A stretch of DNA of 64,000 bases, from positions 5,222-69,221 of the forward strand of contig QZJO01000001.1 of assembly GCA_003599755.1 (NCBI GenBank), in the 5' to 3' direction. Under the pieces are notes generated by a model. That model made no database searches, had not been told where the DNA came from, and worked only from the letters and a program-made list of their open reading frames with translations. Positions 3,868 to 55,339 of this stretch are shown here, piece by piece (the first letter of the stretch is position 1; each line of letters begins with the position of its first letter). This DNA is from Candidatus Parcubacteria bacterium (GTDB taxonomy: Bacteria > Patescibacteriota > Minisyncoccia > Sungbacterales > SURF-37). A program made the position numbers and the translations under genes.

Positions 3868-4760
3868 ATTTGCATCACTGACGGGCCGGGTCAATATTTT
3901 ATATTCATTGCACATTGATGTTTTACCCGTTACCATAAAAATATGGCTCGGGCTAGGTTTGATTTACCTATTGCTACCGTAAAAAGCCTCTACTGGGAAC
4001 GGGGTTTTTCTCTCGCAAAAATAGGCACCCGTTTTGGGTGCTCATGGAGTACTGTCGCGAATCGTTTGCGGGAGCACCATATTCCTTTGAAGAAAAAGAC
4101 GGAAATGAAAGTACGCTATCAAAAACGGTCATTCATCGGTTCGCTCGAGGAAATGGCGTATTTAGTTGGTTTCCGACTCGGAGATCTGAATGTCTACCGG
4201 CCTTCGATCAATTCAAAAATCGTAGTGGCGCGCTGCCACACTACGGTATCCATGCAAGCAAATCTTATTCGGTCGCTTTTTAAGAAATATGGCGGAGTGC
4301 GAGTTGTCCGTTCCAGTAACGGCATTACCATAAATTGCTTTCTGAATTTATCGTTCGGATTTTTGTTACCAAAAATTTATCCGCAATGGATTCAGCCGCA
4401 ATCAAAACCAATGGCTGCATTCACTGCCGGATATACCGATGCTGAGGGGTCGTTTGGTGTATATCAAGGAAGAGGGCGTTTCAAGCTCGATTCGTATGAT
4501 TATCAGATATTGCGAAATATATATCGTTTCTTGATTATCCAAGGAATTCATGCAAAGTTTTGGTGTATTGCGAAGCGAAATACAGCAAATATCAATGGCG
4601 GACGATGGCGCCACGATCTTTGGCGAATCAACGTCAATGAGGCGAAATCCTTGGTTAAATTTATTCGAATATTGTTGCCCCATTTAAGACATCATAACCG
4701 TATTCAACAAGCGCATGCAGTACTGAAAAATATCCAATCCAGATCCTCATTCACATGAAT
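3868..4760 (+). mobile_element. Low-GC (about 40%) insertion carrying a free-standing homing-endonuclease gene
   Basis: Abrupt GC drop relative to flanking genes (murJ, lepA about 63%). The segment ends exactly at the lepA start codon. Confidence 0.45.
3943..4758 (+). CDS. LAGLIDADG-family homing endonuclease-like protein (double-motif) with N-terminal HTH
   Basis: Two LAGLIDADG-like motifs: 'LVGFRLGDLNV' (about aa 64-74) and 'FTAGYTDAEGSF' (about aa 160-171, with the acidic catalytic residue). N-terminal HTH 'FSLAKIGTRFGCSWSTVANRLRE'. 271 aa. AT-rich codon usage unlike the host. Confidence 0.5.
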   Translation: MARARFDLPIATVKSLYWERGFSLAKIGTRFGCSWSTVANRLREHHIPLKKKTEMKVRYQKRSFIGSLEEMAYLVGFRLGDLNVYRPSINSKIVVARCHTTVSMQANLIRSLFKKYGGVRVVRSSNGITINCFLNLSFGFLLPKIYPQWIQPQSKPMAAFTAGYTDAEGSFGVYQGRGRFKLDSYDYQILRNIYRFLIIQGIHAKFWCIAKRNTANINGGRWRHDLWRINVNEAKSLVKFIRILLPHLRHHNRIQQAHAVLKNIQSRSSFT

Positions 4761-6551
4761 ATTCGGAACTTTGTAATTATCAGCCATGTTGATCACGGCA
4801 AGTCCACGCTTGCCGACCGGCTCTTGGAATTGACCGGCGCGGTGGAACGCCGGCGCATGCGCGAACAGTTTCTCGATCAGATGGAACTCGAGCGTGAGAA
4901 GGGGATCACGATCAAGATGCAGCCCGTTCGGATGCTCTGGCAGCCGCGCGGGGCAGAGCCGCCCTACATGCTGAATCTGATCGATACTCCCGGGCACGTG
5001 GATTTTTCGTACGAGGTATCGCGTGCGCTTGCCGCGGTGGAAGGCGCGATTCTCTTAGTGGACGCGACCCAGGGTATCCAGGCCCAAACCCTTGCGAATC
5101 TGGAGCTCGCGCGGCGCGAGGGGCTTGCCATCGTGCCGGCCGTCAATAAAATCGATCTTCCGGCCGCGCGGCCCGATGAGGTGGCCGAAGAAATCGCGTC
5201 GCTCCTCGAAATGCCGGCTGCCGACGTATTGCGTATATCCGGGAAAACCGGGGCGGGCGTGCCCGAACTCTTGGCCGCCATGGTGCGCGCCGTGCCGCCG
5301 CCGAGCGCCCGCGCCGACAAGCCCGCGCCCATGCCGCGCGCGCTGATCTTTGATTCGCACTTCGATCCCTATCGCGGCGTGATCGCGCATGTGCGCGTTA
5401 CGGACGGCACGTTTCGCCACGGGGCTAAGGTATGGATGGCGGCAACCCGTACGACCGTGGAGCTGATGGAGATCGGCACCTTCGCGCCCGAACTCAAGGC
5501 CGGGACGGAACTGGGCGCGGGCGAGATCGGCTATTTCGCGACCGGCCTCAAGGAAGCCGATGCGGTGCGCGTCGGAGATACGGTCCTCGGCGAAATGGGT
5601 GCCGACGCATGGCGGTTTCCGGGATACCGCGAGCCCGCCCCCATGGTATTCGCGAGCTTATATCCGGAAGATGCGGATATGTACGAGCGGCTGCTCGATG
5701 CGCTGAAGAAGATCCGCCTCAACGATGCCGCGTTGTCGTTCGAACCTGAATCGTCCGACGCGCTCGGCCGCGGGTTTCGCGCCGGATTTTTGGGCATGCT
5801 GCATATGGAAATCGTGGCCGAGCGGCTGCGGCGCGAATATGGCATCGCGCTCGTCACTACCATTCCTTCGGTGGCCTACCGTGTCATCCGGATCAACGGC
5901 GCGGAGGAATTCATCTACGCGGCAGGCAAGTTCCCGGATTTGCACGCGGTGCGCGAGGTGCGCGAGCCCTGGGTGCGCCTGGAGATCATCACCCCGCAAC
6001 GGTTCATGGGCAGCATTTTGGAATTAGTGCGCAAAGTCCGCGGCACGCCGGGCGACCAGCGGTACCTCGGCGGCGACCGGATGCATATCACGGCCGAAGC
6101 GCCGTTGCGCGACGTGCTCGTTGATTTTTTCGATGCGCTCAAAAGCGCGACCGAGGGATATGCGTCGCTTTCCTACGAGCCGATCGGGGAGCGGCTGGGC
6201 GACCTCGTACGCCTCGACATCGTCATCGCGGACGAGCGCGAGGATGCGCTCGCGCAAGTCGTGCCGTCCGAACGCGCGTATCAGGCGGGCCGCGCGATCG
6301 TGGCCAAGCTCAAGGAGCTCTTGCCCAAGGCCCTCTTCCCGATACCGCTTCAAGCAGCGGCCAATGGCCGCATCATCGCGCGCGAGACGATTCCGGCGCT
6401 GAAAAAAGACGTTACCGGGTATCTGTATGGCGGGGACCGCACGCGCAAGATGAAACTTTGGAAAAAGCAGCAGCGCGGGAAAAAGCGCCTGACCGAACGG
6501 GGGCGCGTAGAAATACCGCCCGACGTGTTTTTGCAAATTTTGAAGCGTTAA
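4755..6551 (+). CDS. lepA: Elongation factor 4 (LepA)
   Basis: 598 aa. 'NIRNFVIISHVDHGKSTLADRLL' G1 motif, 'LIDTPGHVDF', LepA C-terminal domain. Confidence 0.9.
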   Translation: MNIRNFVIISHVDHGKSTLADRLLELTGAVERRRMREQFLDQMELEREKGITIKMQPVRMLWQPRGAEPPYMLNLIDTPGHVDFSYEVSRALAAVEGAILLVDATQGIQAQTLANLELARREGLAIVPAVNKIDLPAARPDEVAEEIASLLEMPAADVLRISGKTGAGVPELLAAMVRAVPPPSARADKPAPMPRALIFDSHFDPYRGVIAHVRVTDGTFRHGAKVWMAATRTTVELMEIGTFAPELKAGTELGAGEIGYFATGLKEADAVRVGDTVLGEMGADAWRFPGYREPAPMVFASLYPEDADMYERLLDALKKIRLNDAALSFEPESSDALGRGFRAGFLGMLHMEIVAERLRREYGIALVTTIPSVAYRVIRINGAEEFIYAAGKFPDLHAVREVREPWVRLEIITPQRFMGSILELVRKVRGTPGDQRYLGGDRMHITAEAPLRDVLVDFFDALKSATEGYASLSYEPIGERLGDLVRLDIVIADEREDALAQVVPSERAYQAGRAIVAKLKELLPKALFPIPLQAAANGRIIARETIPALKKDVTGYLYGGDRTRKMKLWKKQQRGKKRLTERGRVEIPPDVFLQILKR

Positions 6552-34207: not shown

Positions 34208-35536
34208 ATGCTTGATCCGAAATTCATCCGCGAACATCCCGATCGCGTGCGCGCCGGCCTCAAGGCCAAAGGCGTCGAGTTCGACGTAGACGCGTTTCTG
34301 AAACTCGACGAACGCCGCCGCGCGAAAATCGGGGAGGTGGATCAATTGCGCGCGAAACAGAATACGGCGTCGGACGCCATCGCTACACTCGCGCCCGCTG
34401 AGCGCGAGACAACACTCGGCCAAATGCGCGATCTCAAAACCAACCTCACCAAACTAGAAGACGAACTCAAAACGATCGAAGCCGAATACGATGAGCGCAT
34501 CCGCCAGATTCCGAATCTGCCGCTCGATGACGTGCCGCACGGCAAGGATGACCGCGATAACGTGGTGCTTCGAGAAGTAGGCGAGCGGCCGGTGTTCTCG
34601 TTTCCGGTGCGCGATAATATCGAGCTCGGGGAAGAGCTCGATATTATCGATACCGCTCGCGCGGCAAAGATTTCGGGCTCGCGTTTCGGCTATCTCAAGC
34701 GCGAGGCCGCGCTCTTGGAATTCGCGCTCGTGCAGTATGCGTTCTCCGTACTAACGAACCGCGCCGCGATCGCAGATATTCTCAAGGAGGAAGGGCTGGA
34801 TCTTTCCGATGAACCCTTTGTGCCCGTCGTGCCGCCGGTTATGGTACGGCCTGAGGTCATGCGCGCCATGGGGTACATGGAACGGGGCGGCGATGAAATT
34901 TACCGGGTTGCCGATGATGATCTTTTGCTTGTCGGCACGTCGGAACAATCTATCGGGCCGATGCATATGAACGAAATGCTTGCCGAAGAGTCCCTGCCGC
35001 GCCGCTACGTCGGCTTCTCGACCTGCTTTCGCCGCGAGGCCGGATCGTACGGTAAAGATACGCGGGGGATTTTGCGCGTGCACCAGTTCGATAAAGTCGA
35101 GATGTTTTCGTTCACGCTGCCGGAATCATCCCGCGCGGAACACCGACTGTTCCTCGCCCTGGAAGAGCGGTTTTTCCGCGGGCTTGGCATTCCGTACCGC
35201 GTACTCAACATCTGCGCCGGGGACCTCGGGGACTCGGCTGCGGCAAAATTCGACATCGAAGCGTGGCTGCCCGGCGAAAACGCCAAGCAAGGCCAGTACC
35301 GCGAGGTAACTTCAACGTCGAACACGACCGATTTCCAGTCGCGCCGGCTCAACGTCAAAGTTCGGCGCGCCAACAATCAGGCCGAGCATCCGCATCTCGT
35401 CAACGGCACGGCATTTGCCATCGGCCGGACGCTGATCGCGATTCTCGAAAACTATCAGCGGGAAGACGGCTCAGTGGAGATCCCTGAAGTACTGCAGTCG
35501 TTTTTGCCGGGCATCACTGAAATCCGGCGGACATGA
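34208..35536 (+). CDS. serS: Seryl-tRNA synthetase
   Basis: N-terminal coiled coil, class II motifs 'FRREAGSYGKDTRGILRVHQF', 'GTAFAIGRTLIAILEN'. Confidence 0.9.
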   Translation: MLDPKFIREHPDRVRAGLKAKGVEFDVDAFLKLDERRRAKIGEVDQLRAKQNTASDAIATLAPAERETTLGQMRDLKTNLTKLEDELKTIEAEYDERIRQIPNLPLDDVPHGKDDRDNVVLREVGERPVFSFPVRDNIELGEELDIIDTARAAKISGSRFGYLKREAALLEFALVQYAFSVLTNRAAIADILKEEGLDLSDEPFVPVVPPVMVRPEVMRAMGYMERGGDEIYRVADDDLLLVGTSEQSIGPMHMNEMLAEESLPRRYVGFSTCFRREAGSYGKDTRGILRVHQFDKVEMFSFTLPESSRAEHRLFLALEERFFRGLGIPYRVLNICAGDLGDSAAAKFDIEAWLPGENAKQGQYREVTSTSNTTDFQSRRLNVKVRRANNQAEHPHLVNGTAFAIGRTLIAILENYQREDGSVEIPEVLQSFLPGITEIRRT

Positions 35537-37543: not shown

Positions 37544-37608
37544 TACGTTTCACCAACAAATAAGCTCCGATAGTCCTCGGAGCTTATTTGTTGGTGCCAT
37601 AATCGCGG

Positions 37609-46037: not shown

Positions 46038-46073
46038 CTACATTCCAACATTCTTGAGAATGTTGGAATGTTA
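46038..46073. promoter_or_regulatory. Perfect 14-2-14 AT-rich palindrome P1 (CATTCCAACATTCT-TG-AGAATGTTGGAATG) upstream of the gtrA-like gene; putative operator
   Basis: Read directly. Shares the core CATTCT-TG-AGAATG with P4 at 55308. Confidence 0.45.
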
Positions 46074-46185
46074 GCGGTGGCGTGTTGGGGCGCAGGGGAT
46101 AGCGCGGCATGCGCCGCGCGCCGCGGCCGTGGTATCCTAAAAGCAGGATAAGCCGCCGCTAACGTCCGTAATCGGCCGAGATTCT

Positions 46186-46791
46186 ATGCAAAAGCGCGAT
46201 GTGTTCGGGAGTATCGTCATCGGCATTGTTGCCGGTTTTTTGATGTATCTGATCGGCACGAATCTGCCCGATCTGGCCCCCGCGGTTCGGGATTGGCTCT
46301 GGGTGCTACCCATCGGCTTTCCGGTTGCCACGCTTGTTGCCATGGTCGTGGGCTCGTTCATCGGCCGGCGCATCCCGGTTGTCTATCAGCTCACCAAGTT
46401 CTTGCTCGTCGGCGGGCAGAACTTCCTTATTGATCTTGGCGTCCTCAATCTCCTGATCGCCTCGACCGGCATCGAGCAGGGCACCGAGATCGTCGTTTTC
46501 AAGGCGGTATCGTTCGTCGTCGCGGTGATCGCGAGTTTCTTTTGGAACAAATTCTGGACGTTCCGGTCGCTGTCCGTGGAGCGCGCCGGGTTCCAATTTT
46601 TTGAATTCTTCATCGTTTCGGCCATCGGCCTTGGCATCAACACCGGCTCGTTTGCCCTGGCCAACAACGTCGTCGGCGCGCAGTACGGCCTGAGCCCGGA
46701 GGCATGGGCCAACGTGAGCGCGGGCATTGCCGCGATCATCGGCCTGATGTGGAACTTCATCGGCTACAAATTCATCGTCTTCCGCCGCTAA
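46186..46791 (+). CDS. GtrA-family membrane protein (lipid-linked sugar translocation/polysaccharide synthesis)
   Basis: C-terminal 130 aa match the GtrA fold ('KFLLVGGQNFLIDLGVLNLLI', 'FFWNKFWTFR'). Extra N-terminal TM helices. Confidence 0.65.
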   Translation: MQKRDVFGSIVIGIVAGFLMYLIGTNLPDLAPAVRDWLWVLPIGFPVATLVAMVVGSFIGRRIPVVYQLTKFLLVGGQNFLIDLGVLNLLIASTGIEQGTEIVVFKAVSFVVAVIASFFWNKFWTFRSLSVERAGFQFFEFFIVSAIGLGINTGSFALANNVVGAQYGLSPEAWANVSAGIAAIIGLMWNFIGYKFIVFRR

Positions 46792-46816
46792 CGGAGGGCT
46801 CGTGCGAGTAGATTAC

Positions 46817-46848
46817 TTATTCTAATGTTCTTAAGAACATTAGAATAA
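46817..46848. promoter_or_regulatory. Perfect 32-nt palindrome P2 (TTATTCTAATGTTCTTAAGAACATTAGAATAA) 14 nt upstream of arsR; putative ArsR operator
   Basis: Read directly. AT-rich 16-0-16 palindrome typical of ArsR/SmtB operators. Confidence 0.5.
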
Positions 46849-46861
46849 AACAAAATGGAAT

Positions 46862-47146
46862 ATGGCAGAGCGCGGGGGAAAGTCGTTTCGAGAGTTAGAG
46901 CGCATCGTGCGGGGGTTTTCAAACCATCGCCGCATCGAAATCATGGGATTGCTCGATCGGATGCCGGAGCTTTCCTTGCTGGATGTCGCCAAATCGCTGC
47001 ATATCAATTTCAAAACTGCATCTGAGCATATCCGCCGGCTTGCCATTGCCGGCCTTGTTCTTAAAAGAAATGACGGCCATTCGGTGCGCCACGCTCTTGC
47101 GCCCCGTGGCAAACTTATTCTTAAGTTCTTAAGAACATTAGAATAA
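46862..47146 (+). CDS. ArsR/SmtB-family winged-HTH transcriptional regulator (no metal-binding Cys motifs evident)
   Basis: 94 aa. 'RRIEIMGLLDRMPELSLLDVAKSLHINFKTASEHIRRLAIAGLV' HTH. The stop overlaps the downstream ATG (TAATG). Confidence 0.7.
   Translation: MAERGGKSFRELERIVRGFSNHRRIEIMGLLDRMPELSLLDVAKSLHINFKTASEHIRRLAIAGLVLKRNDGHSVRHALAPRGKLILKFLRTLE
47115..47146. promoter_or_regulatory. Near-perfect copy of palindrome P3 (TTATTCTTAAGTTCTTAAGAACATTAGAATAA) overlapping the arsR 3' end and the start of the large secreted-protein gene
   Basis: Read directly. Differs from P2 at 2-3 positions in the left arm. Confidence 0.5.
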
Positions 47147-50100
47147 TGGCGCGCGGAAAACGACCGTGGATTCGCATCGTAGTGGGCGCCGGTCTTCCGC
47201 TGGTCGGGATCTGTATTGCCGTGCGAGCCGAGGCGGCGCAGTGCATTACCGAGCCGTTTGCGCAGGGATACTTTTTTAGTGACTACGAAGCGGTTGCATA
47301 TCAAGACGGGTTTCTGGCGCTTCATTATCGGATCGGCACCGAGCAGTTTAATGATGGCAGGACATTTCGCCTCGGATTTTCGGTATTCTCTGATACCTGC
47401 GACACGGCAATGCTTGATGTTTTCAATCAATTTGTCGTTGCGTTTCCGCCGGCTACGCAGGGATTTAGTATTCGTTTTACTTCCTCTTCGACATATGAGG
47501 TATGGAACGACGATATGAATACCCGTGCGGAATGCGCGGGCTGTCAGGGCGTTCTTCCTGTCTTTCCCTCCTACTACCAGATGCGCGTGAATGGCTTTAT
47601 TGATGGAGGCGCAAGCGTACTTCACGGAACATCGCATACGATTATCGAACATGCGGCCGGGCCGCCCATTCGAGGCGCGGCGCCTAACCCTCCCGATGCT
47701 TGCCCCGAGCAGGGTCTGAATGCCACGGGATACTACTTTGATGCGTTCGAACGCATCGAGCGATTGAACGGCGAGCTAGTGTACCAATTTCGACTCAAGA
47801 CGCCCTTTAATGACGGGAGAGGCGGTATCCTCTTCTTTGAGCTTTTCGATGCGGCATGCAATTCGCAGGGAATAATTCCATTTTACGATCGATTGGCGAT
47901 GACACCGCGTTCCCGGTATTTCAGCCTCCGATTTACCGATCGAACGAAATATGAGTTTTGGGACGATGACCACGAAATGCCTATTGATTGTCCTGCTTGT
48001 TCCGGCGAGTTACCGCCAGTGCTGTCGAATGGCGAGCCCTATGCATACGTGAGAGTGCGCGGCCGGATAGATGGAGCTGCTTCAACGCTTTCGTCCACGC
48101 TATTCCCTCTTGAAGGCGATGTCCCGTGTTGCTCGAACGTGCTATTTCTGCCGGGGCTCCAAGGGAGCCGGCTGTATCGTCCTGGCGAGGATCAACTTTG
48201 GGAGCCGACGCGGAATCAAGATATTGAAGAACTATATCTCGCAAACAACGGGCAGAGTTTGAATGCCGAGATTTATACCCGGGATATCATCGATGAGGCG
48301 CCGCGGATCATCAACGGCTATAACGTATATAAAAAATTCATCCAGTTCATGGATGAAGAATTAGTGGGGCAGGGAATCATCGATGAATGGAAAGCGATTC
48401 CCTATGACTGGCGACTCGACCTACCGTATATCATGCACGACGGTAAGAAAGTCGGCGAGACGGAGGGCGAAGACAATATCTCGTACATTGGCTCCACATC
48501 CACGCCGTATCTTATTCAAGAACTCGAGCGACTCGCGAATACATCGCGATCGGGTCGCGTGACGATCATCGCGCACTCCAACGGCGGGTTACTGGCCAAA
48601 TATTTGTTATCACAGATCGCCCCTCCTCATAGCCAGTACCATCATCTTTTCGCGAAGATCGATAAAGTAATACTCGTGGCGGTACCGCAGATCGGAACGC
48701 CTGCGGCAATCGAAGGCCTTCTCCACGGCGATGAACCTCAGCTGGGGGCAAATGTCGGTGTTACGGATTGGGGTTTTCTCGTAGACGAAGAGCGAGCGCG
48801 CGAACTTGCTGAGAATATGCAAAGCGCTTACAACCTTTTGCCGTCGCAGACGTATTTCGAGTTGGTGCAAAGTCCTATGGTGGAATTCGAATCGTCGACG
48901 GCGCGCGCCTACGATTTTCGCTCTTTTTACGACGGCACTATCGACTCGACCGAAGAGCTCAAGAGTTTTCTTGCGGGCGAACCGCATATACAGGGTCGTA
49001 GCGAACCGTTTGCCGACGACGAAGAATCGCCGAATGTACTGGATGCAAATATGCTCGCGTCGGCTATGCAGATGCATGCCGTGCTCGATAATTGGGCCCC
49101 TCCGGGCGGTATTGAAGTGGTCCAGATTGCCGGCTGGGGCATCAAGACCGTTCGCGGGATAAAGTATTCGTGCGGATTCTTCACATGCTCATCATTGAGT
49201 ACGCTTGACCGGGAGATTCTAAAAACGCACGAGGGAGACGGGACGGTTGTGCTGCCAAGTGCGGTAGCGATGGAGGAAGCGGAGAATGTTGAGAAATATT
49301 ATGTAAATCTGAGTAATTATAACGGAGAGCTTAGAAACCTCCGGAGAAACCGCGATCACGCGAGTATTTTAGAAGCCGATCCTACAAGGGCGTTTCTTAA
49401 AGAGATTATTAAAAATGATAAAAATTTAATAAAGCACGTAACATCCTCCATCCCGTCGGGCGAAGATCTCCTTACTCTTGATTATGCTATTCATTCACCT
49501 GTTGATATCCATCTGTATGATGCAGACAGTAATCATACCGGTCCTATTTCTAACCCATTACAGAACTCTGATTTCTTGGCATATGAAGCAACTATTCCAA
49601 ATTCCTATTATTGGGAATATGGTGAGACAAAATATGCTGGCTCAGATGCCATGACTGGAACGCTGGTGCAGTTGGTTGGTACGGCTACCGGCACATTTAC
49701 ATTCGATATTATCGAGAATCGGGGAGATGAAATTTTGGCAACAACAACCTTTAGAGATATTCCTGTTGGGATAGGATCCGTGCTTACCATGCGGATTGAT
49801 ACGATTGCGAGTTCAACATCGTTGCGAATGGATTTTGATGGAGATGGAATCATCGAAACGGATATTCTTCCGGGCGAAGGCATTACAACGAATGAGCTCA
49901 TTGGAATTATGAAAGGTCTCGTTAAAACGTTCAGCCTAACCGAGGAAGAGGAGAAAGGGCTTATTAAAGCGCTTGATAAATTCGAGAAAAATCTTGGCAA
50001 GGATTTCAAAGACGAAGAAAAAAGAAAAAAGAAGCTCGGACAGGCACTAGATTCAGTTGCGGGAAAGATCGAAAAATATGGGCAGAAAGAAGTTCTTTCG

Positions 50101-50163
50101 CCGGATGAGTTATTGCAGTTGATAAATTTTATAGATGAAATTAGGACTAAAGTGTTAGATTGA
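47146..50163 (+). CDS. Large secreted multidomain protein: signal peptide, two tandem paralogous Cys-containing domains, LCAT/PGAP1-like alpha/beta-hydrolase (phospholipase/acyltransferase-like) domain, low-GC beta-rich and coiled-coil C-terminal module
   Basis: Signal peptide 'MARGKRPWIRIVVGAGLPLVGICIAVRAEA'. Internal duplication (ECAGCQGVLP / DCPACSGELP). 'AIPYDWRLDLPYIM' resembles the LCAT 'APYDWRL' motif. Nucleophile elbow 'VTIIAHSNGGLLAKY'. GC drops from about 52% to about 38% at about 49290. Confidence 0.6.
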   Translation: MARGKRPWIRIVVGAGLPLVGICIAVRAEAAQCITEPFAQGYFFSDYEAVAYQDGFLALHYRIGTEQFNDGRTFRLGFSVFSDTCDTAMLDVFNQFVVAFPPATQGFSIRFTSSSTYEVWNDDMNTRAECAGCQGVLPVFPSYYQMRVNGFIDGGASVLHGTSHTIIEHAAGPPIRGAAPNPPDACPEQGLNATGYYFDAFERIERLNGELVYQFRLKTPFNDGRGGILFFELFDAACNSQGIIPFYDRLAMTPRSRYFSLRFTDRTKYEFWDDDHEMPIDCPACSGELPPVLSNGEPYAYVRVRGRIDGAASTLSSTLFPLEGDVPCCSNVLFLPGLQGSRLYRPGEDQLWEPTRNQDIEELYLANNGQSLNAEIYTRDIIDEAPRIINGYNVYKKFIQFMDEELVGQGIIDEWKAIPYDWRLDLPYIMHDGKKVGETEGEDNISYIGSTSTPYLIQELERLANTSRSGRVTIIAHSNGGLLAKYLLSQIAPPHSQYHHLFAKIDKVILVAVPQIGTPAAIEGLLHGDEPQLGANVGVTDWGFLVDEERARELAENMQSAYNLLPSQTYFELVQSPMVEFESSTARAYDFRSFYDGTIDSTEELKSFLAGEPHIQGRSEPFADDEESPNVLDANMLASAMQMHAVLDNWAPPGGIEVVQIAGWGIKTVRGIKYSCGFFTCSSLSTLDREILKTHEGDGTVVLPSAVAMEEAENVEKYYVNLSNYNGELRNLRRNRDHASILEADPTRAFLKEIIKNDKNLIKHVTSSIPSGEDLLTLDYAIHSPVDIHLYDADSNHTGPISNPLQNSDFLAYEATIPNSYYWEYGETKYAGSDAMTGTLVQLVGTATGTFTFDIIENRGDEILATTTFRDIPVGIGSVLTMRIDTIASSTSLRMDFDGDGIIETDILPGEGITTNELIGIMKGLVKTFSLTEEEEKGLIKALDKFEKNLGKDFKDEEKRKKKLGQALDSVAGKIEKYGQKEVLSPDELLQLINFIDEIRTKVLD

Positions 50164-50166
50164 AAT

Positions 50167-50592
50167 ATGTCTCATAGACAGAAAATAGCTGTAATAGTTA
50201 CTATCTCCGTATTAATTTTCGGTTCTGTATGGTTTGTTTGTGCAGAAGAATGTCCTAATATAAGTCGCTTCCTAGATCCTGAATCTGAAGAGGCAATAGT
50301 GCTTTCTGCAGTTTTATTCCTTCCATCGATTTTCTTAATTTCACTTATGCTCTTCTTTTTTGGAGAAGAGACATTCCGCCTTTGGTTTAATTTTGCCAAA
50401 TTTTACTTACCAATTACGATCGCGTTTATTATTTGGTCTGCGTATGTTTCAAGCAGCACGAGCTGGGGAATAAGTACCGGATCGGATGCTGAATCTTTCG
50501 CTTGGTTTTTTGCGATTCTATTCCTCATTATTTCTGTATCTCTAATCTCCTGGAAATCTTGGCGACTACGGAAAGGATCAGCAGGGAGATAA
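50167..50592 (+). CDS. Small 4-TM membrane protein (low-GC; immunity-protein-like placement)
   Basis: 141 aa with four hydrophobic helices, AT-rich codons. Starts 4 nt after the stop of the large secreted-protein gene. Confidence 0.5.
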   Translation: MSHRQKIAVIVTISVLIFGSVWFVCAEECPNISRFLDPESEEAIVLSAVLFLPSIFLISLMLFFFGEETFRLWFNFAKFYLPITIAFIIWSAYVSSSTSWGISTGSDAESFAWFFAILFLIISVSLISWKSWRLRKGSAGR

Positions 50593-50655
50593 CGGAGTGA
50601 CATCGGATGTCGGTACCGCTATTTAACTCCTGGCCCGTTTCAGTTTTATTCTAAT

Positions 50656-50877
50656 ATGCTCGTTGCCGAAGGCAAACTTGATGCGCGCATTGCGTTTGAT
50701 CCTTGGGGTTATGACTATGATTTCGCCTCCGGCGTATTGCTCATTGCCGAAGCCGGCGGCCGCGTGACAAACATTGGCAGCACGACCTACGACTACCGTA
50801 ATACGAATTTCATTGCCGCAAATCCGGTAATTTTTGAAGAACTCACGAAAGGTCCGGACGCCATATTCCCATTGTGA
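50656..50877 (+). pseudogene. C-terminal remnant (about 73 aa) of an inositol-monophosphatase-family (SuhB/CysQ-like) gene; the 5' part is missing
   Basis: 'LVAEGKLDARIAFDPWGYDYDFASGVLLIAEAGGRVTN' matches the IMPase C-terminal 'WDxAAGxLIxxEAGGxVTD' region. No N-terminal metal-binding motifs occur upstream, where the low-GC insert lies. Confidence 0.55.
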
Positions 50878-51407
50878 AAAAGCAAACGAATTGGATTGTT
50901 TTTACTGGCGCTCCAAACTCGGGGAAGTCCAGTGCGCTCGAGCGAATGTCATTCCTCGGATATAAAACCGTGCCCGAGAACGCCCGCCTTTTCATTGATC
51001 AAGAAGTGAGCCAAGGAAGAGCGGTCAGTGATATCCGCGCAGATGAGCAAGAGTTTCAAAGAAAGATTCTCGCTCTTAACAAGGAAGTAGCTGAACGGTT
51101 CCCTTCCGAAGAACTTACGTTTTTTGATAGAGGTCTGGGGGACAGCATTGCGTATTTCACCGTGCACCGGATGGATCCTGCGCCTGCCATTCAAGCAGCG
51201 CGAGATATTCAATACCGAAAAGTATTTCTGTTTGATCGTTTGGCATCACAACGAAATCAATTTGGCGATGAACAGATAGCCAGCGAAATTGAAGCGGCGA
51301 TCGAGCGAGCCTATACGGACTTGGGATATGAGATCACTCGGGTTCCGGCGGTTTCCATACCGGAACGAGTCACATTAATTTTGGATACTCTTGAGTTAGA
51401 GGGGTAA
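50874..51407 (+). CDS. P-loop NTPase (AAA_28/predicted kinase-ATPase family)
   Basis: 'IVFTGAPNSGKSSALE' Walker A, 'FFDRGLGDSIAY' Walker B-like. About 50% GC. Confidence 0.6.
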   Translation: MKKQTNWIVFTGAPNSGKSSALERMSFLGYKTVPENARLFIDQEVSQGRAVSDIRADEQEFQRKILALNKEVAERFPSEELTFFDRGLGDSIAYFTVHRMDPAPAIQAARDIQYRKVFLFDRLASQRNQFGDEQIASEIEAAIERAYTDLGYEITRVPAVSIPERVTLILDTLELEG

Positions 51408-51517
51408 GGGTTGTCCGATACTATTCATAATTTGCCCTGTGAAATACCGCAATGGCCTCTCTTGAGGCGATAGGGTATCTTCAAGGAGCTTAGAATCATA
51501 AGCCCGCACGGATATTT

Positions 51518-52558
51518 ATGCCCAAGGAAGAAAAAGCCGAGAAACTGCGCGCATTGGAAGATACGGTCAAAGAGCTCCAGGACAAGTTCGGGGAAGGGGC
51601 GCTGATGATGCTTGGCGAGGCCCGGAAGGTCAACGTGGATGTCATCCCGACCGGCTCGCTTGCCCTGGATATGGCCCTTGGCGTGGGCGGGATGCCCAGA
51701 GGCCGGGTGGTGGAGATATTCGGCCCCGAATCTTCGGGCAAGACCACGCTCGCGCTCCATATCGTTGCCCAAGCCCAAAAGAAGGGCGGGCTTGCGGCAT
51801 TCGTGGATGCCGAGCATGCCCTGGACCCGGACTATGCCAAGCGCCTCGGCGTGAAGGTCAACGAGCTTTTGATATCCCAGCCCGACACCGGCGAGCAGGC
51901 CTTGGAGATCGTGGATTCGCTCGTGCGCTCGGGTTCCATGGACGTGGTGGTGATCGACTCGGTGGCCGCGCTCACACCCCGGGCCGAGATCGAGGGCGAC
52001 ATGGGCCAGCAGCACGTCGGCCTGCAGGCGCGCTTGATGTCGCATGCGCTCCGGAAATTGACGGGGTCGGTGTCGCGCACCAAGACCGTGGTGATTTTCA
52101 TCAACCAGATACGGATGCAGATCGGCATCATGTTCGGCAACCCCGAGACCACGCCCGGGGGCAAGGCCCTGAAATTCTATTCGTCCGTGCGCGTGGAGGT
52201 GCGCCGTGCGGCGCAAATCAAGAAAGGGGACGAGATCATCGGCAACCGGGTGAACGCCAAGGTAGTGAAGAACAAGGTTGCCGCGCCGTTTCGTCGCGCG
52301 GAGTTCGACATCTTCTACAACGAAGGCATTTCGCATGAGGCCGAATTGCTGATCCTTGGCGAAAAGTACGGGGTACTCAAGAAATCGGGTGCTTCGTACC
52401 TGTTCGGCGGCACGCGCCTCGGCCAGGGCTTTGATAACGCCCGCAATTTCCTGAAGGAAAATGGGAAGATCGCCGATGAGATAGCCAAAAAAATCAAAGA
52501 CGCCGCGGCTTCCGGCGTGGTCCCGGAACCAAAGGGCAAAGGAAAAGAGGAGGATTAG
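51518..52558 (+). CDS. recA: Recombinase RecA
   Basis: '[19 protein letters not shown]' Walker A, 'VVIDSVAAL', L2 loop. 346 aa. Confidence 0.95.
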
Positions 52559-52576
52559 ATTTGTCGAGGAAACGAC

Positions 52577-52615
52577 AAACCGCCGGCCACTCAGGGCCGG
52601 CGGTTTGCATATGAA
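52577..52615 (+). terminator. Rho-independent terminator after recA
   Basis: AAACCGCCGGCC-ACTCAG-GGCCGGCGGTTTGCATAT. Confidence 0.55.
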
Positions 52616-53212
52616 GTTAAAAAAATGGGCCGCCAGAGTGGTGGAAGCCCGAGACGAGAGACGTTTCCAGTGCGAGGCCTGGACCCTTGTTGCCCGTTTT
52701 ACGGGGCTTGAGAGCCATTCCTGGCCAAAGACCTTGCGGTCACCTTTGAGACGTATCCCGCCCGAACACCACCACACTGGCGGCATGCCGCTGACGATGG
52801 CCAGCCCTTTGTTGACGACCGAAGCCGTCACCACTGAGCTTGACGCCCGATCGCTCCCAGGGAGCATATGCTGACGCGCGGCCAGCCACGCTTTGAGAAC
52901 GCTCGTGCGTCCAATCATCGTCCTTACGGCATCTGATGGGCATGCGCCCGAAGAACTTTGCCGCGAACGGCACCCTACGATCTGCAGGTGAGGGGGAAAA
53001 CCCACAGCTGTTTGACCGAAGCGCCGATCCGCGACTTTTTTCGGCAGGCACCCGCCCGCCAGCTTGCCAACAGATGCACTCGTCACCCGTCAGCCCATGC
53101 ATCTTCGCGCGTTCGGGGTTTTGAGTCAAGCGTTTTTCAGGCTGTTTTACCCTCTGGTCATCAACAAGTAATGCACAGCGCTGTCAGACAATGAAGAAGA
53201 ATTGAAGGCAAG

Positions 53213-53250
53213 AAAATCCGTCCGCCGGGCGCGGACGGATTTTCTTCACG
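53213..53250 (-). terminator. Hairpin terminator downstream of the rpsF-ssb-rpsR operon (minus strand)
   Basis: AAAATCCGTCCGC-CGGG-CGCGGACGGATTTTCTT. T-rich on the minus strand after the hairpin. Confidence 0.5.
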
Positions 53251-53267
53251 AAGCGAAAGCCTAATCC

Positions 53268-53546
53268 TTAGTAGAGATTGTAGGCGAGCAAGCCGAGTTC
53301 GCGCGCGCGCTTGATGGCGTTCGCGAGCGCGCGCTGGTGGAGCGCGCAGAGGCCCGTGCGGCGCCGCGGCATGATCTTCATCTGGAAATTCATGAAGCGC
53401 CGCAGCGTCTCGGCATCCTTGTGGTCGATGAATTTATGGCTCGAGGTGCAAAAGAAACACTGCCGTTCGGGCTGCGGGGCAACCGAACGGATCATGCGCG
53501 CGGTGCGCGCGGCTTCGCGAGGCGATTGGGTTCGAGGAGACGGCAT
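53268..53546 (-). CDS. rpsR: 30S ribosomal protein S18
   Basis: 'CFFCTSSHKFIDHKDAETLRRFMNFQMKIMPRRRTGLCALHQRALANAIKRARELGLLAY'. The start may be the internal ATG at 53495. Confidence 0.8.
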   Translation of the reverse strand: MPSPRTQSPREAARTARMIRSVAPQPERQCFFCTSSHKFIDHKDAETLRRFMNFQMKIMPRRRTGLCALHQRALANAIKRARELGLLAYNLY

Positions 53547-53572
53547 GATGGATTGCGATTATGCGATCGGTG

Positions 53573-54046
53573 CTAAAACGGAATATCTTCGGGTTTGATT
53601 TCGTCTTCGTCGCCGGGGTATTGCACGGTCTCGACGGGCTCAGGGGCCGGTTGCTCGGCCTGTTCGCCGCTTGCCGCGGCTTTGCCGTTGGGCGCGCCGC
53701 TGGCCGCGTGGCCGCCGCCCGTGCGCGGGCCCAGCTGCATGGTCTCGGCCACGATTTCGGTGCGGTATTTTTTTTCGCCGTTTTTGTCCTGCCAGGAGCG
53801 CGTTTGGATACGGCCTTCGATGAACACGAGCGAGCCCCTTTTCAAATATTGGTTGCAGATCTCGGCCAGACGGCCCCAGGCGACGATATTGTGGAATTCG
53901 GCCGCTTGTTGGCGTTCGCCGCGCGCGTCTTTGAATACGCGGTTGGTCGCGATGCTGAAGGAGCAGACGTTTTGGCCGCTCGGCGTGGTGCGCAGTTCCG
54001 GATCGCGCGTCACATTGCCGAGGACGAATGCTTTGTTGAAGTTCAT
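53573..54046 (-). CDS. ssb: Single-stranded DNA-binding protein
   Basis: OB fold 'FVLGNVTRDPELRTTPSGQNVCSFSIATN', acidic tail ending 'DIPF'. Confidence 0.9.
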   Translation of the reverse strand: MNFNKAFVLGNVTRDPELRTTPSGQNVCSFSIATNRVFKDARGERQQAAEFHNIVAWGRLAEICNQYLKRGSLVFIEGRIQTRSWQDKNGEKKYRTEIVAETMQLGPRTGGGHAASGAPNGKAAASGEQAEQPAPEPVETVQYPGDEDEIKPEDIPF

Positions 54047-54564
54047 GCGCGTTCCTCCTCAGTTGATGCGGGAGCAGCGTTTGATTCGGCCGCGGCGGGG
54101 GTTTCCTCGCCGCCGAGGATTTCATCGAGTTTTTTGTCGAGCTCCGCGAATTTCTGGACGTCCTCTTCTTTCGGCGCTTGGGGTGTGAATGCCTGGGCAG
54201 GACCGCCGCCCGCGCCGCTCGGGCGCCGGCCGCGTTCGCCGCGAGGGCGGAATTCCTGGACCGGGCGCTTCACCTCTTCGGTGATCATATGGCGGACTAT
54301 GGATTTCTCGCCTTTGAGCTTGGCGTTGATTTCTCCAAGGCGCTCGGGCGCGACGGTAAAGACCGTGTAGCCGAAGTAGGCGTTTTGCAATTCATCGATG
54401 GGGTAGGCGAGGCGGCGCTTTTTCGGCTCTTCGATCCGCCCGACAACACCATGCGCATCCTGGATGAAGCCGGTGATTTTTCCGGCCTCGCCGAACACGG
54501 CATCCTCGGCGATGTCGGGCTGGAAGAGGTAGGACACTTCGTAGGTTTTGGTATCCGCGTTCAT
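54043..54564 (-). CDS. rpsF: 30S ribosomal protein S6 (with extended C-terminal tail)
   Basis: 'YEVSYLFQPDIAED', 'RRLAYPID'. The start is set at MNADTKTYEV; the track ORF begins at 54588. Confidence 0.85.
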   Translation of the reverse strand: MNADTKTYEVSYLFQPDIAEDAVFGEAGKITGFIQDAHGVVGRIEEPKKRRLAYPIDELQNAYFGYTVFTVAPERLGEINAKLKGEKSIVRHMITEEVKRPVQEFRPRGERGRRPSGAGGGPAQAFTPQAPKEEDVQKFAELDKKLDEILGGEETPAAAESNAAPASTEEERA

Positions 54565-54761
54565 GGCGATGTGCTCAAACTCTAGCAAACGAGCCGTGGT
54601 TTTCCAATTGACTTTTCATATCACGAATGGTACCTTGGCGCAAGATAGACGACCTTTTGAGCGTGTTCGAGCGGGAGAAAGGCCCCGTGGCTTTCGCAGG
54701 CGCGCGGCATGCGCGTCTGGCATGTTCGGGTACGAGAATGTTCGTTTCCCGGGAGGCCATC

Positions 54762-55217
54762 ATGGCAACGGCGGAGAAGCGGTCGCAGTCGCAAACCAAC
54801 GCATTACCGGCAGCGCCGGACGTCGGCGCCCTCGTGACTCGGCTGGAGGCACGCGCGCTGCACTTCTGGTTCACCCTCGCATACCGCGATCGGCCGGACG
54901 ATCCCTGGCACCTCGTGAAGATCGCCGAGCTCAGCGATGAGATGGTGGCGCATGCCACCATCGGCGAGTTCGCCGTCAATCCGACCGGCTGCCAGCCCGT
55001 CTGCAGCGGCCAGGCGCGGGTCGAATGGCATCCAACGACCGATTCCGAGCTGCGGATGTTCATCGCATTCTGGCGCGACGGCGTCAACGGCTTTCGCCGG
55101 TGGTTCATCCGCCTCATGCAGGAGCACCCGCGCCTCAGGGAAGAGGACCGCGTACGGATCACCGACGCGCTCGCCGCCATGTTGCGCACCCGGCGCGTCG
55201 GGCACGACAGCAACTGA
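54762..55217 (+). CDS. Hypothetical protein (no recognisable domain)
   Basis: 152-aa ORF from MATAEKRS. High-GC codon bias consistent with the host. The track ORF is extended to 54627. Confidence 0.35.
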   Translation: MATAEKRSQSQTNALPAAPDVGALVTRLEARALHFWFTLAYRDRPDDPWHLVKIAELSDEMVAHATIGEFAVNPTGCQPVCSGQARVEWHPTTDSELRMFIAFWRDGVNGFRRWFIRLMQEHPRLREEDRVRITDALAAMLRTRRVGHDSN

Positions 55218-55307
55218 ACCTGCGGCATCGCGCCGCACCTCGCCCCAGAAGGACCCATCCAGAGCCGGATGGGTCCTTTCGCTTTTGCGGCGGGGCTTCG
55301 ATCGCAG

Positions 55308-55339
55308 ACATTCTCACATTCTTGAGAATGTGAGAATGT
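55308..55339. promoter_or_regulatory. Perfect 15-2-15 AT-rich palindrome P4 (ACATTCTCACATTCT-TG-AGAATGTGAGAATGT) between convergent genes
   Basis: Read directly. Same core and TG spacer as P1. Confidence 0.45.

Follow-up and report, generated by a model that had tools for sequence, protein, structure and literature searches.

Putative operator palindromes at the promoter and in the last codons of a small winged-helix regulator gene of Candidatus Parcubacteria

Results

Four palindromes, two of which bracket a regulator gene

The stretch analysed here (referred to below as the window) comprises 64,000 nucleotides of contig QZJO01000001.1 (positions 5,222 to 69,221; GenBank assembly GCA_003599755.1) of a Candidatus Parcubacteria bacterium. 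It contains four AT-rich palindromes, P1 to P4, two of which, P2 and P3, flank the gene of a 94-amino-acid (aa) winged-helix (wHTH) protein. A preliminary description made from the letters of the window alone proposed that all four are operators of this protein, which was taken to be an ArsR regulator. All four palindromes were confirmed in the sequence, three of them as perfect palindromes and one, P3, as a nearly perfect one (Table 1), and they are the sole AT-rich palindromes of this kind with a spacer of at most 2 nucleotides (nt) within the window. P1, described as a 14-2-14 palindrome at position 46038, is indeed a palindrome, but its coordinates and arm length had to be corrected. The GC content of the window is 59.2%, and not 62% as given for the genome in that description; the arms of P1 to P4 have a GC content of 19–33%.

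Every palindrome consists of four RTTCY pentamers: two direct-repeat pentamers 8 bp apart make up each arm, and the arms are inverted relative to each other, so the earlier view of the half-site as a doubled unit was correct. The pattern common to P1–P4 is ATTCYNANRTTCTTRAGAAYNTNRGAAT. A degenerate half-arm pattern has 6 matches in the window, compared with 0.12 expected from shuffled sequences. P2 is a symmetrised copy of the right arm of P3; the centre of P3 reads AGTTCTTAAGAACA, and the equivalent positions of P2 read TGTTCTTAAGAACA.

The placement of the palindromes relative to genes was largely as described. P2 lies just upstream of the regulator gene, at a distance of 13 nt rather than 14. 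P3 overlaps the stop codon of this gene (47144–47146) together with the start codon of an LCAT-like gene, the two codons being fused in TAATG. P1 precedes a gtrA-like gene, ending 114 nt before its ATG, and P4 is located between convergent genes, a plus-strand open reading frame (ORF) of 196 codons and ychF on the minus strand. No consensus σ70 promoters were found near P1–P4. Neither gathering nor E-value thresholds gave an Rfam match in the window, and no tRNA gene was found in it.

Table 1. Features of the window referred to in the text (position 1 is the first nucleotide of the window)
Feature	Position	Strand	Description
P1	46040–46071		Perfect 15-2-15 palindrome; arms ACATTCCAACATTCT TG AGAATGTTGGAATGT; core TTCCAACATTCTTGAGAATGTTGGAA; solo copy, AACA/CACA subtype
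P2	46817–46848		Perfect 16-0-16 palindrome; halves TTATTCTAATGTTCTT and AAGAACATTAGAATAA
P3	47115–47146		Near-palindrome; right arm as in P2; left arm TTATTCTTAAGTTCTT, 3 positions differ
P4	55308–55339		Perfect 15-2-15 palindrome; left arm ACATTCTCACATTCT, then TG; core TTCTCACATTCTTGAGAATGTGAGAA; solo copy in gap between convergent genes
wHTH gene	46862–47146	+	94 aa, subfamily 1; C-terminus ILKFLRTLE
gtrA-like gene	46186–46791	+	Membrane protein; Pfam GtrA_DPMS_TM, E = 3.4e-21; bracketed by P1 and P2
LCAT-like gene	47146–50163	+	α/β-hydrolase, 1005 aa; Pfam LCAT, E = 2.3e-9; GC3 0.51
Low-GC3 island	46862–51407		wHTH, LCAT-like, 141-aa ORF, 73-aa inositol-monophosphatase fragment, AAA_28
73-aa ORF	50656–50877		C-terminal fragment of inositol monophosphatase
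196-aa ORF	54627–55217	+	Flanks P4; ychF (− strand) on the other side
Hairpin	55249–55278		Terminator-like, 12-6-12, 30 nt before P4
Hairpin	34612–34649		16-6-16
Hairpin	37551–37596		20-6-20
Hairpin	53210–53246		16-5-16
Direct repeat	45983–45992/46140–46149		AAAGCAGGAT, exact
Direct repeat	46032–46040/46178–46186		GAGATTCTA, exact
Inverted repeat	46070–46081/46152–46163		12 nt, GTTAGCGGTGGC / GCCGCCGCTAAC
Low-GC stretch	4001–5000		GC 0.47

Selection on the site at the 3′ end of the gene

We compared the window with 80 homologous loci (GC content 0.29–0.60), and with the addition of metagenome loci the comparison covered 105 genes. A 3′ copy of the palindrome is present at 103 of these genes and an upstream copy at 99 (at 79 of the 80 loci), which ties P2 and P3 to the regulator gene, as had been proposed. 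P3 is made up of the codons for (L)ILKFLRTLE and the stop codon, and in all 80 loci the last 30 nt of the gene conform to ATTCTnAArTTCTTrAGAAyAyTrGAATAr.

Codon choice within the 3′ copy departs from that elsewhere in the same genes. Arginine is encoded by AGA in 77 of 77 cases (21% elsewhere), phenylalanine by TTC in 77 of 78 (35%), glutamate by GAA in 78 of 78 (59%) and threonine by ACA in 57 of 61 (27%); one leucine codon is CTN without exception, and for the following leucine TTR is used in 77 of 78 cases. Within the window, TTA, AGA and ACA account for 1%, 2.5% and 5% of their codon families, respectively, and the joint probability of the codon choices in the tail is ~1e-10. Judged by this codon usage, selection acts on the DNA of the 3′ copy, synonymous sites included. 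The conserved 3′ copy is asymmetric, each of its arms being within the allowed half-site repertoire; in some lineages a lysine-to-methionine replacement makes the palindrome perfect and identical to P2. Since three diverged subfamilies (see below) carry the gene-end palindrome in different registers, the conserved feature is the position of the site at the end of the gene and not the peptide.

The pentamer positions are ~100% conserved in sequence, and complementary central pairs are rarer than expected. Among mismatches in upstream copies, G:T pairs (40) are not in excess over A:C pairs (45), and the third position of the lysine codon in the 3′ copy (AAA in 31 cases, AAG in 36) is not tuned to the C opposite to it. 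The conserved pentamers, the lack of G:T bias, the asymmetric 3′ copy and the untuned lysine codon together disfavour an RNA hairpin and favour recognition of half-sites in duplex DNA.

The preliminary description suggested P3 as an operator of the LCAT-like gene. As a primary role this is not supported, since the regulator gene itself ends in P3 and this end is conserved, 3′ copies have no −10 box at a fixed spacing downstream, and the gene located downstream of the regulator differs between genomes, with an LCAT-like gene recurring next to no homologue. When all 3′ copies were considered, −10 boxes at +28 to +31 downstream of them were no more frequent than expected (5 compared with ~4). The 3′ copy was therefore rejected as a promoter element of the next gene.

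Position of the upstream site relative to the promoter

The upstream copy is found 0–126 nt before the start codon. Within the 500 nt that precede the gene, sites occur at 2.1 per kb, compared with 0.28 just downstream and ~0.02 beyond 2.5 kb. In most cases the upstream copy corresponds to one arm of the 3′ copy of the same gene, made symmetric: upstream and 3′ arms of the same gene differ by 1.21 mismatches, compared with 1.89 in shuffled pairs, and none of 2,000 shuffles gave a value as low.

The distance from the centre of the upstream copy to the start of a −10 box, often TGnTATAAT, is 28–31 nt in 23 of 63 loci; on the mirror side a single −10 box falls within this range, at 28. Such spacing places the centre of the site near −41.5 relative to the predicted transcription start, and its outer arm (TTGAGA, TTAGAA) over the −35 position. 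P2 is presumed to be the primary operator of the regulator gene.

Fold and distribution of the regulator

A protein with the same sequence as the 94-aa regulator (locus tag C4552_00220) is encoded on a 73-kb contig of a Candidatus Parcubacteria metagenome-assembled genome. At least 1,591 homologues (90%-identity clusters; 64–78% identity), all ending in ...ILKFLRTLE, are found in Parcubacteria and related groups, and the family is confined mainly to bacteria of the candidate phyla radiation (CPR).

The window protein scores below the cut-offs of Pfam HTH_5 (19.8 bits, cut-off 22) and NCBIfam HTH_metalloreg (37.3 bits, cut-off 55). The family profile matches HlyU (E = 4e-9, residues 7–92), and many homologues have a precomputed PF01022 assignment. 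In the AlphaFold2 model (predicted local distance difference test score, pLDDT, 80), helices at residues 9–18, 22–33, 39–46, 50–62 and 81–93 and strands at 66–71 and 74–79 follow the order α1-α2-α3-αR-β1-β2-α5, which is the ArsR/SmtB fold with a C-terminal dimerisation helix; the best Foldseek matches to the model are SmtB, AspA, SqrR, CzrA, CadC, ArsR and HlyU. A search of the 94-aa sequence for metal, metalloid or thiol sensor residues revealed no cysteine, and neither histidine nor aspartate is present in α5 (GKLILKFLRTLE). Invariant residues of the family include N21, H22, R23, R24, H56 and H77. The name ArsR used in the preliminary description is therefore appropriate for the fold, which both model and profile support, but not for an arsenic or metal sensor, given the absence of cysteines and α5 ligands and the scores below the Pfam and NCBIfam cut-offs. 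By profile and model, the regulator is a non-metal, HlyU-like member of the ArsR/SmtB group. Profiles of defence and phage protein families gave generic winged-helix matches only.

P1 and P4 belong to the site type of a sister subfamily

A metagenome scan with a pattern that covers the P1, P4 and CAAA types retrieved at least 120 loci and revealed a second subfamily of regulators, with the recognition helix KT[IV]SEHTRRL and a C-terminus ...TFQHS. In this subfamily the palindrome is centred on the stop codon TGA (ACA TTC CAA CAT TCT TGA, followed by GAATGTTGGAATGT), and an upstream copy is also present. The core of P1 is identical to sites flanking subfamily-2 genes in four loci (L182, L204, L181 and L199), and the core of P4 is identical to the 3′ site of the subfamily-2 gene in locus L120. 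No subfamily-2 gene was found in the window, either ending at P1 or P4 or elsewhere, and no wHTH ORF ends at P1. In a third, more distant group the palindrome lies 5–48 nt after the stop codon.

Where the residue after SEH in the recognition helix is threonine, arms of the xxCA type are present in 23 of 34 cases; where it is isoleucine, as in the window protein, they are present in 7 of 124. At the level of sequence, protein and site covary. Hybrid sites combining arms of two subtypes make up 25 of 132, and the orientation of the central dinucleotide shows no bias (CA 31, TG 19, p = 0.12).

The proposal that P1 and P4 are targets of the window regulator is not upheld, because their subtype belongs to a sister subfamily with a different recognition helix that is absent from the window. 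They would most probably be bound by a paralogue with the threonine-type helix encoded elsewhere, or, more weakly, by the window protein. The caution voiced earlier about P4 as a promoter operator was justified, as P4 is a solo site of the sister subtype in a convergent gap. The comparison also gave no support to regulation of the gtrA-like and LCAT-like genes, which recur beside such sites in no other locus.

A further gene with a terminal palindrome was noticed in locus L134 (3675–3947). This third ArsR-like gene is of a more typical kind, and the 32-nt perfect palindrome at its end (CTCTTCTCTAATTCGCGCGAATTAGAGAAGAG), which differs from those above, has the stop codon in its left arm. Similar palindromes are present in L013 (~1436) and L051 (~811). 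It may be common among small CPR regulators for the gene to end in its cognate palindrome.

Sites without a regulator gene

Among the matches listed, 73 of 92 evaluable sites of the P1/P4 type (~79%) have no regulator gene in the locus. The solo sites listed are located in tandem (36), divergent (10) and convergent (9) gaps, and 18 of 74 are inside ORFs; their density, estimated from the sampled loci, is ~0.02 per kb, or ~20 per Mb. No −10 box occurs at a fixed distance from solo sites, and they were rejected as promoter elements for want of a −10 peak. The 83 genes that start next to solo sites (again among the matches listed) fall into 74 clusters. A conserved operon or regulon was also rejected, as the best neighbour family is present in 15 of 81 loci (MurC-, RsmI-, PCMT- and DnaX-like families being the most frequent) and the neighbours of solo sites are diverse. 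Dispersal of the palindromes away from regulated genes, which the preliminary description had named as evidence that would speak against its proposal, is seen in part for the P1/P4 type and is not seen for P2 and P3.

Several sites are located in frame inside housekeeping genes: dus (L008, ~4566, and L036, ~3541), mnmA (L014, ~4139), mutM (L054, ~4051), murC (L228) and rsmI (L170). Peptides encoded by in-gene sites include FSNSQEFEN, HSHILENVRM and ILTFSRMLEC. In murC, the palindrome peptide replaces a segment of the same length in what we take to be the E. coli MurC sequence; since the length of the segment is unchanged, this site looks written in place rather than inserted.

The regulator gene keeps its position among genomes whose flanks are 68–92% identical, and it appears to be inherited vertically. 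No pairs of occupied and empty sites were found among the related genomes compared. In L004 (5414–6285) a gene of a metallo-β-lactamase (MBL)-fold hydrolase is located beside the regulator gene with one palindrome between them; in L007 (44–3245) and L038 (2451–6267) these two genes are split by 2.3–2.9 kb of DNA with palindromes on both sides. Arrays in which palindromes alternate with unrelated genes are present in L038 and L015.

In viral contigs the core pattern was matched 35 times, each time singly and with asymmetric variable positions. These matches are chance-like, only 2 of them having a regulator-like tail, and a link to phages was rejected. The regulator-like tail with a coding-copy palindrome (TTCTGGTTTTCTTAAGAACTTTGGAA) is found in L084 and L087, two IMG/VR contigs that may be CPR phages or misclassified CPR contigs. 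In three other loci a tRNA-Gln gene lies at most ~60 nt after the regulator gene (L035, 1573–1647; L032, 6327–6400; L026, 477–548).

Composition and other features of the locus

The regulator gene opens an island (Table 1) in which GC content at third codon positions (GC3) is 0.32–0.55, compared with 0.73–0.84 in flanking genes, including gtrA. With GC3 so far below that of its flanks, the island is compositionally foreign and was probably acquired from a lower-GC relative. The gtrA-like gene, with a GC3 of 0.80, is native to the genome. The 141-aa ORF of the island has no family match, and the 73-aa ORF corresponds to the end of a longer enzyme gene.

P1 and the GC-rich stretch upstream of gtrA lie between the copies of two exact direct repeats, of which GAGATTCTA runs into the gtrA ATG at its second copy; these repeats may be a footprint of the duplication or insertion that brought in P1, or may be due to chance. 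In the same gap, a 12-nt inverted repeat surrounds a 70-nt GC-rich segment that has no Rfam match. Next to P4, the plus-strand ORF shows the better coding pattern by GC1/2/3. The four other perfect hairpin palindromes listed in Table 1 have moderate GC content, are unrelated in sequence to P1–P4 and are probably terminators. A second low-GC stretch lies far from the palindromes.

Discussion

We consider it reasonably probable that the palindromes are duplex-DNA operators of a family of small ArsR/SmtB-fold winged-helix proteins, with one operator at the promoter and an auxiliary one at the 3′ end of the gene. They are taken as probable binding sites of the regulator because the bracket is family-wide, with one copy at the promoter and another in the last ten codons. 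The two sites that bracket the gene are ~300 bp apart. The upstream one would overlap the core promoter of the gene, either supplying or covering its −35 region or abutting the start codon, and, because of this overlap, bound protein should shut off its own transcription. P3 is presumed to be an auxiliary operator that probably acts through a repression loop or as a roadblock, and not as a promoter element of the next gene. Since every site contains four RTTCY pentamers, binding of more than one dimer per site is suggested.

Several observations weigh against this interpretation. The promoter geometry is not uniform, as the upstream copy directly adjoins the ATG in the window and in ~12 other loci. 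Class II activators classically occupy sites centred at −41.5 as well. Helical phasing of the two bracketing sites, with a best period of 10.3–10.4 bp, is only suggestive (p ~0.06). Inverted pentamer pairs are 8, 16 and 24 bp apart from centre to centre, compared with 12 bp in the SqrR operator (ATTC-N8-GAAT, bound by one dimer); with a doubled half-site and these spacings, the geometry of binding must differ from that of SqrR. Solo sites do not look like a classical regulon, as they occur in every type of gap and in ORFs, with no fixed −10 box and no conserved neighbour. Finally, non-coding copies are more symmetric than recognition by a protein needs: their variable positions 6, 7, 9, 10 and 15–19 pair in 52–86% of cases, compared with 29–63% expected, and their arms reach 30 nt.

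This symmetry, which extends to ~19 nt when the flanks are included, is what one would expect of structural or recombinogenic elements that form cruciforms or hairpins, such as repetitive extragenic palindromic (REP)-like sequences or cassette boundaries, with the wHTH protein as an accessory recogniser. Inverted copies bracket the gene in the way REPs bracket RAYT genes, most of the listed P1/P4-type sites are solo, with no orientation preference and no conserved neighbour, and the hybrid sites, the arrays in L038 and L015 and the palindrome-bounded segment that is present in L007 and L038 and absent in L004 point in the same direction. We nevertheless regard this explanation as unlikely. The sole gene linked to the sites is that of a 90-aa winged-helix protein, and neither recombinases nor transposases accompany them; the copies number tens per Mb and not hundreds; the regulator is syntenic in related genomes, with no occupied/empty pair found; and the murC site replaces native sequence with no change in length. 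The 3′ copy is the best conserved and yet asymmetric, so selection there does not act on base pairing. Template switching at quasi-palindromes is a known mutational route to symmetry.

In a broader variant, to which we likewise give only a small chance, palindromes and protein would form a CPR-wide genome-architecture module, the palindromes serving as insulators or recombination boundaries through which gene cassettes are made and rearranged. The C-terminus of the regulator would then be overprinted since its gene must end exactly at such a boundary. The dispersed solo copies, which a classical regulon does not explain, may point to an architectural role.

It is improbable that the sites are a centromere-like or nucleoid-organising set, comparable to that of ParB–parS or archaeal AspA, which would serve organisation or segregation of DNA and not control of a specific gene. 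Clustering of the sites around the regulator gene, with one of them inside it, the in-frame sites within coding regions, the lack of a conserved regulon and the presence of AspA among the closest folds would all agree with such a role. Against it, neither the DNA around the gene in the window nor the set of recurrent neighbours includes a ParA/ParB-like partner, the gene occurs several times per genome on different contigs, and the fixed spacing between the upstream copy and the −10 box points to transcription. In addition, GC skew is monotonic across the window, which therefore contains no origin or terminus.

An origin of the palindromes as RNA hairpins, that is, terminators, processing sites or stabilisers at transcript ends, is very improbable: although each would fold into a 14-bp stem with a 4-nt loop (z −3 to −7.4), many sites are located just after stop codons and P4 is in a convergent gap, the mismatches and the lysine codon described above give no sign of pairing in the sense RNA, the stems are AT-rich with neither the GC-rich stem and U-tract of an intrinsic terminator nor T-rich tails (separate GC-rich terminator-like hairpins precede P1 and P4), the upstream copy is often upstream of the −10 box and so outside its own transcript, no Rfam family matches, and strict conservation of the stem sequence would not be expected.

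CPR bacteria do not grow in isolation and possess very few regulators, and, to our knowledge, almost nothing is known about how their genes are regulated. Literature searches on the organism, the family and the DNA and peptide motifs revealed no published description of the family or the motif. Under the operator interpretation, a likely recognition sequence can be assigned to a regulator family that has at least 1,591 members. The 3′ copy also provides a clear example of coding sequence overprinted with a cis-element, as it fixes the last nine residues together with their codons, some of them rare in a genome with 59% GC, and the sister subfamily meets the same constraint in a different register.

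Comparison with known systems

REP elements flank RAYT transposase genes as inverted copies, and the present system resembles them in that a gene is bracketed by cognate palindromes and solo copies are mainly intergenic. It differs in the protein, a 90-aa winged-helix polypeptide instead of an HUH/Y1 transposase, in the number of copies (~20 per Mb) and in a core conserved across phylum-level distances; no HUH/Y1 transposase is found among recurrent neighbours, and the density in the loci sampled is far from that of hundreds of extragenic copies per genome. Integron attC sites do not match either, since the core is RTTCY ×4 and not RYYYAAC/GTTRRRY, and a domain search of the ORFs from 41 to 59 kb turned up no integrase. 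A parS site lies inside spo0J; as in ParB–parS and AspA systems, the palindromes cluster around and inside the gene of their putative binder, and AspA is itself an ArsR-like winged-helix protein. In contrast to these systems, no gene of a partner ATPase or adaptor is located near the regulator gene in the window, and the spacing is fixed to the promoter.

The features shared with ArsR/SmtB autoregulators are the fold with its α5 dimerisation helix, AT-rich ATTC/GAAT palindromes and the presence of one site at the promoter of the regulator gene. HlyU also resembles the window protein in having no metal-binding site; its recognition sequence is a 17-bp palindrome, and the region that it protects is 35 bp long. 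SmtB and CzrA operators have a 12-2-12 architecture, whereas four pentamers are present in each site here. Moreover, unlike ArsR/SmtB systems, the family described here has no sensor residues and no conserved target except its own gene, and has a second, obligatory site in or at the end of the gene that fixes the C-terminal peptide and its codons. The lac O2 operator in lacZ and the gal OI operator in galE are auxiliary operators located in coding sequences that form repression loops. The regulator genes of the CPR family would share with them the combination of a promoter operator and a second operator a few hundred bp downstream in the gene; what sets them apart is that the auxiliary site occupies the last codons of the regulator itself and is conserved superphylum-wide, and that a loop is only a candidate mechanism here, helical phasing having a p of ~0.06.

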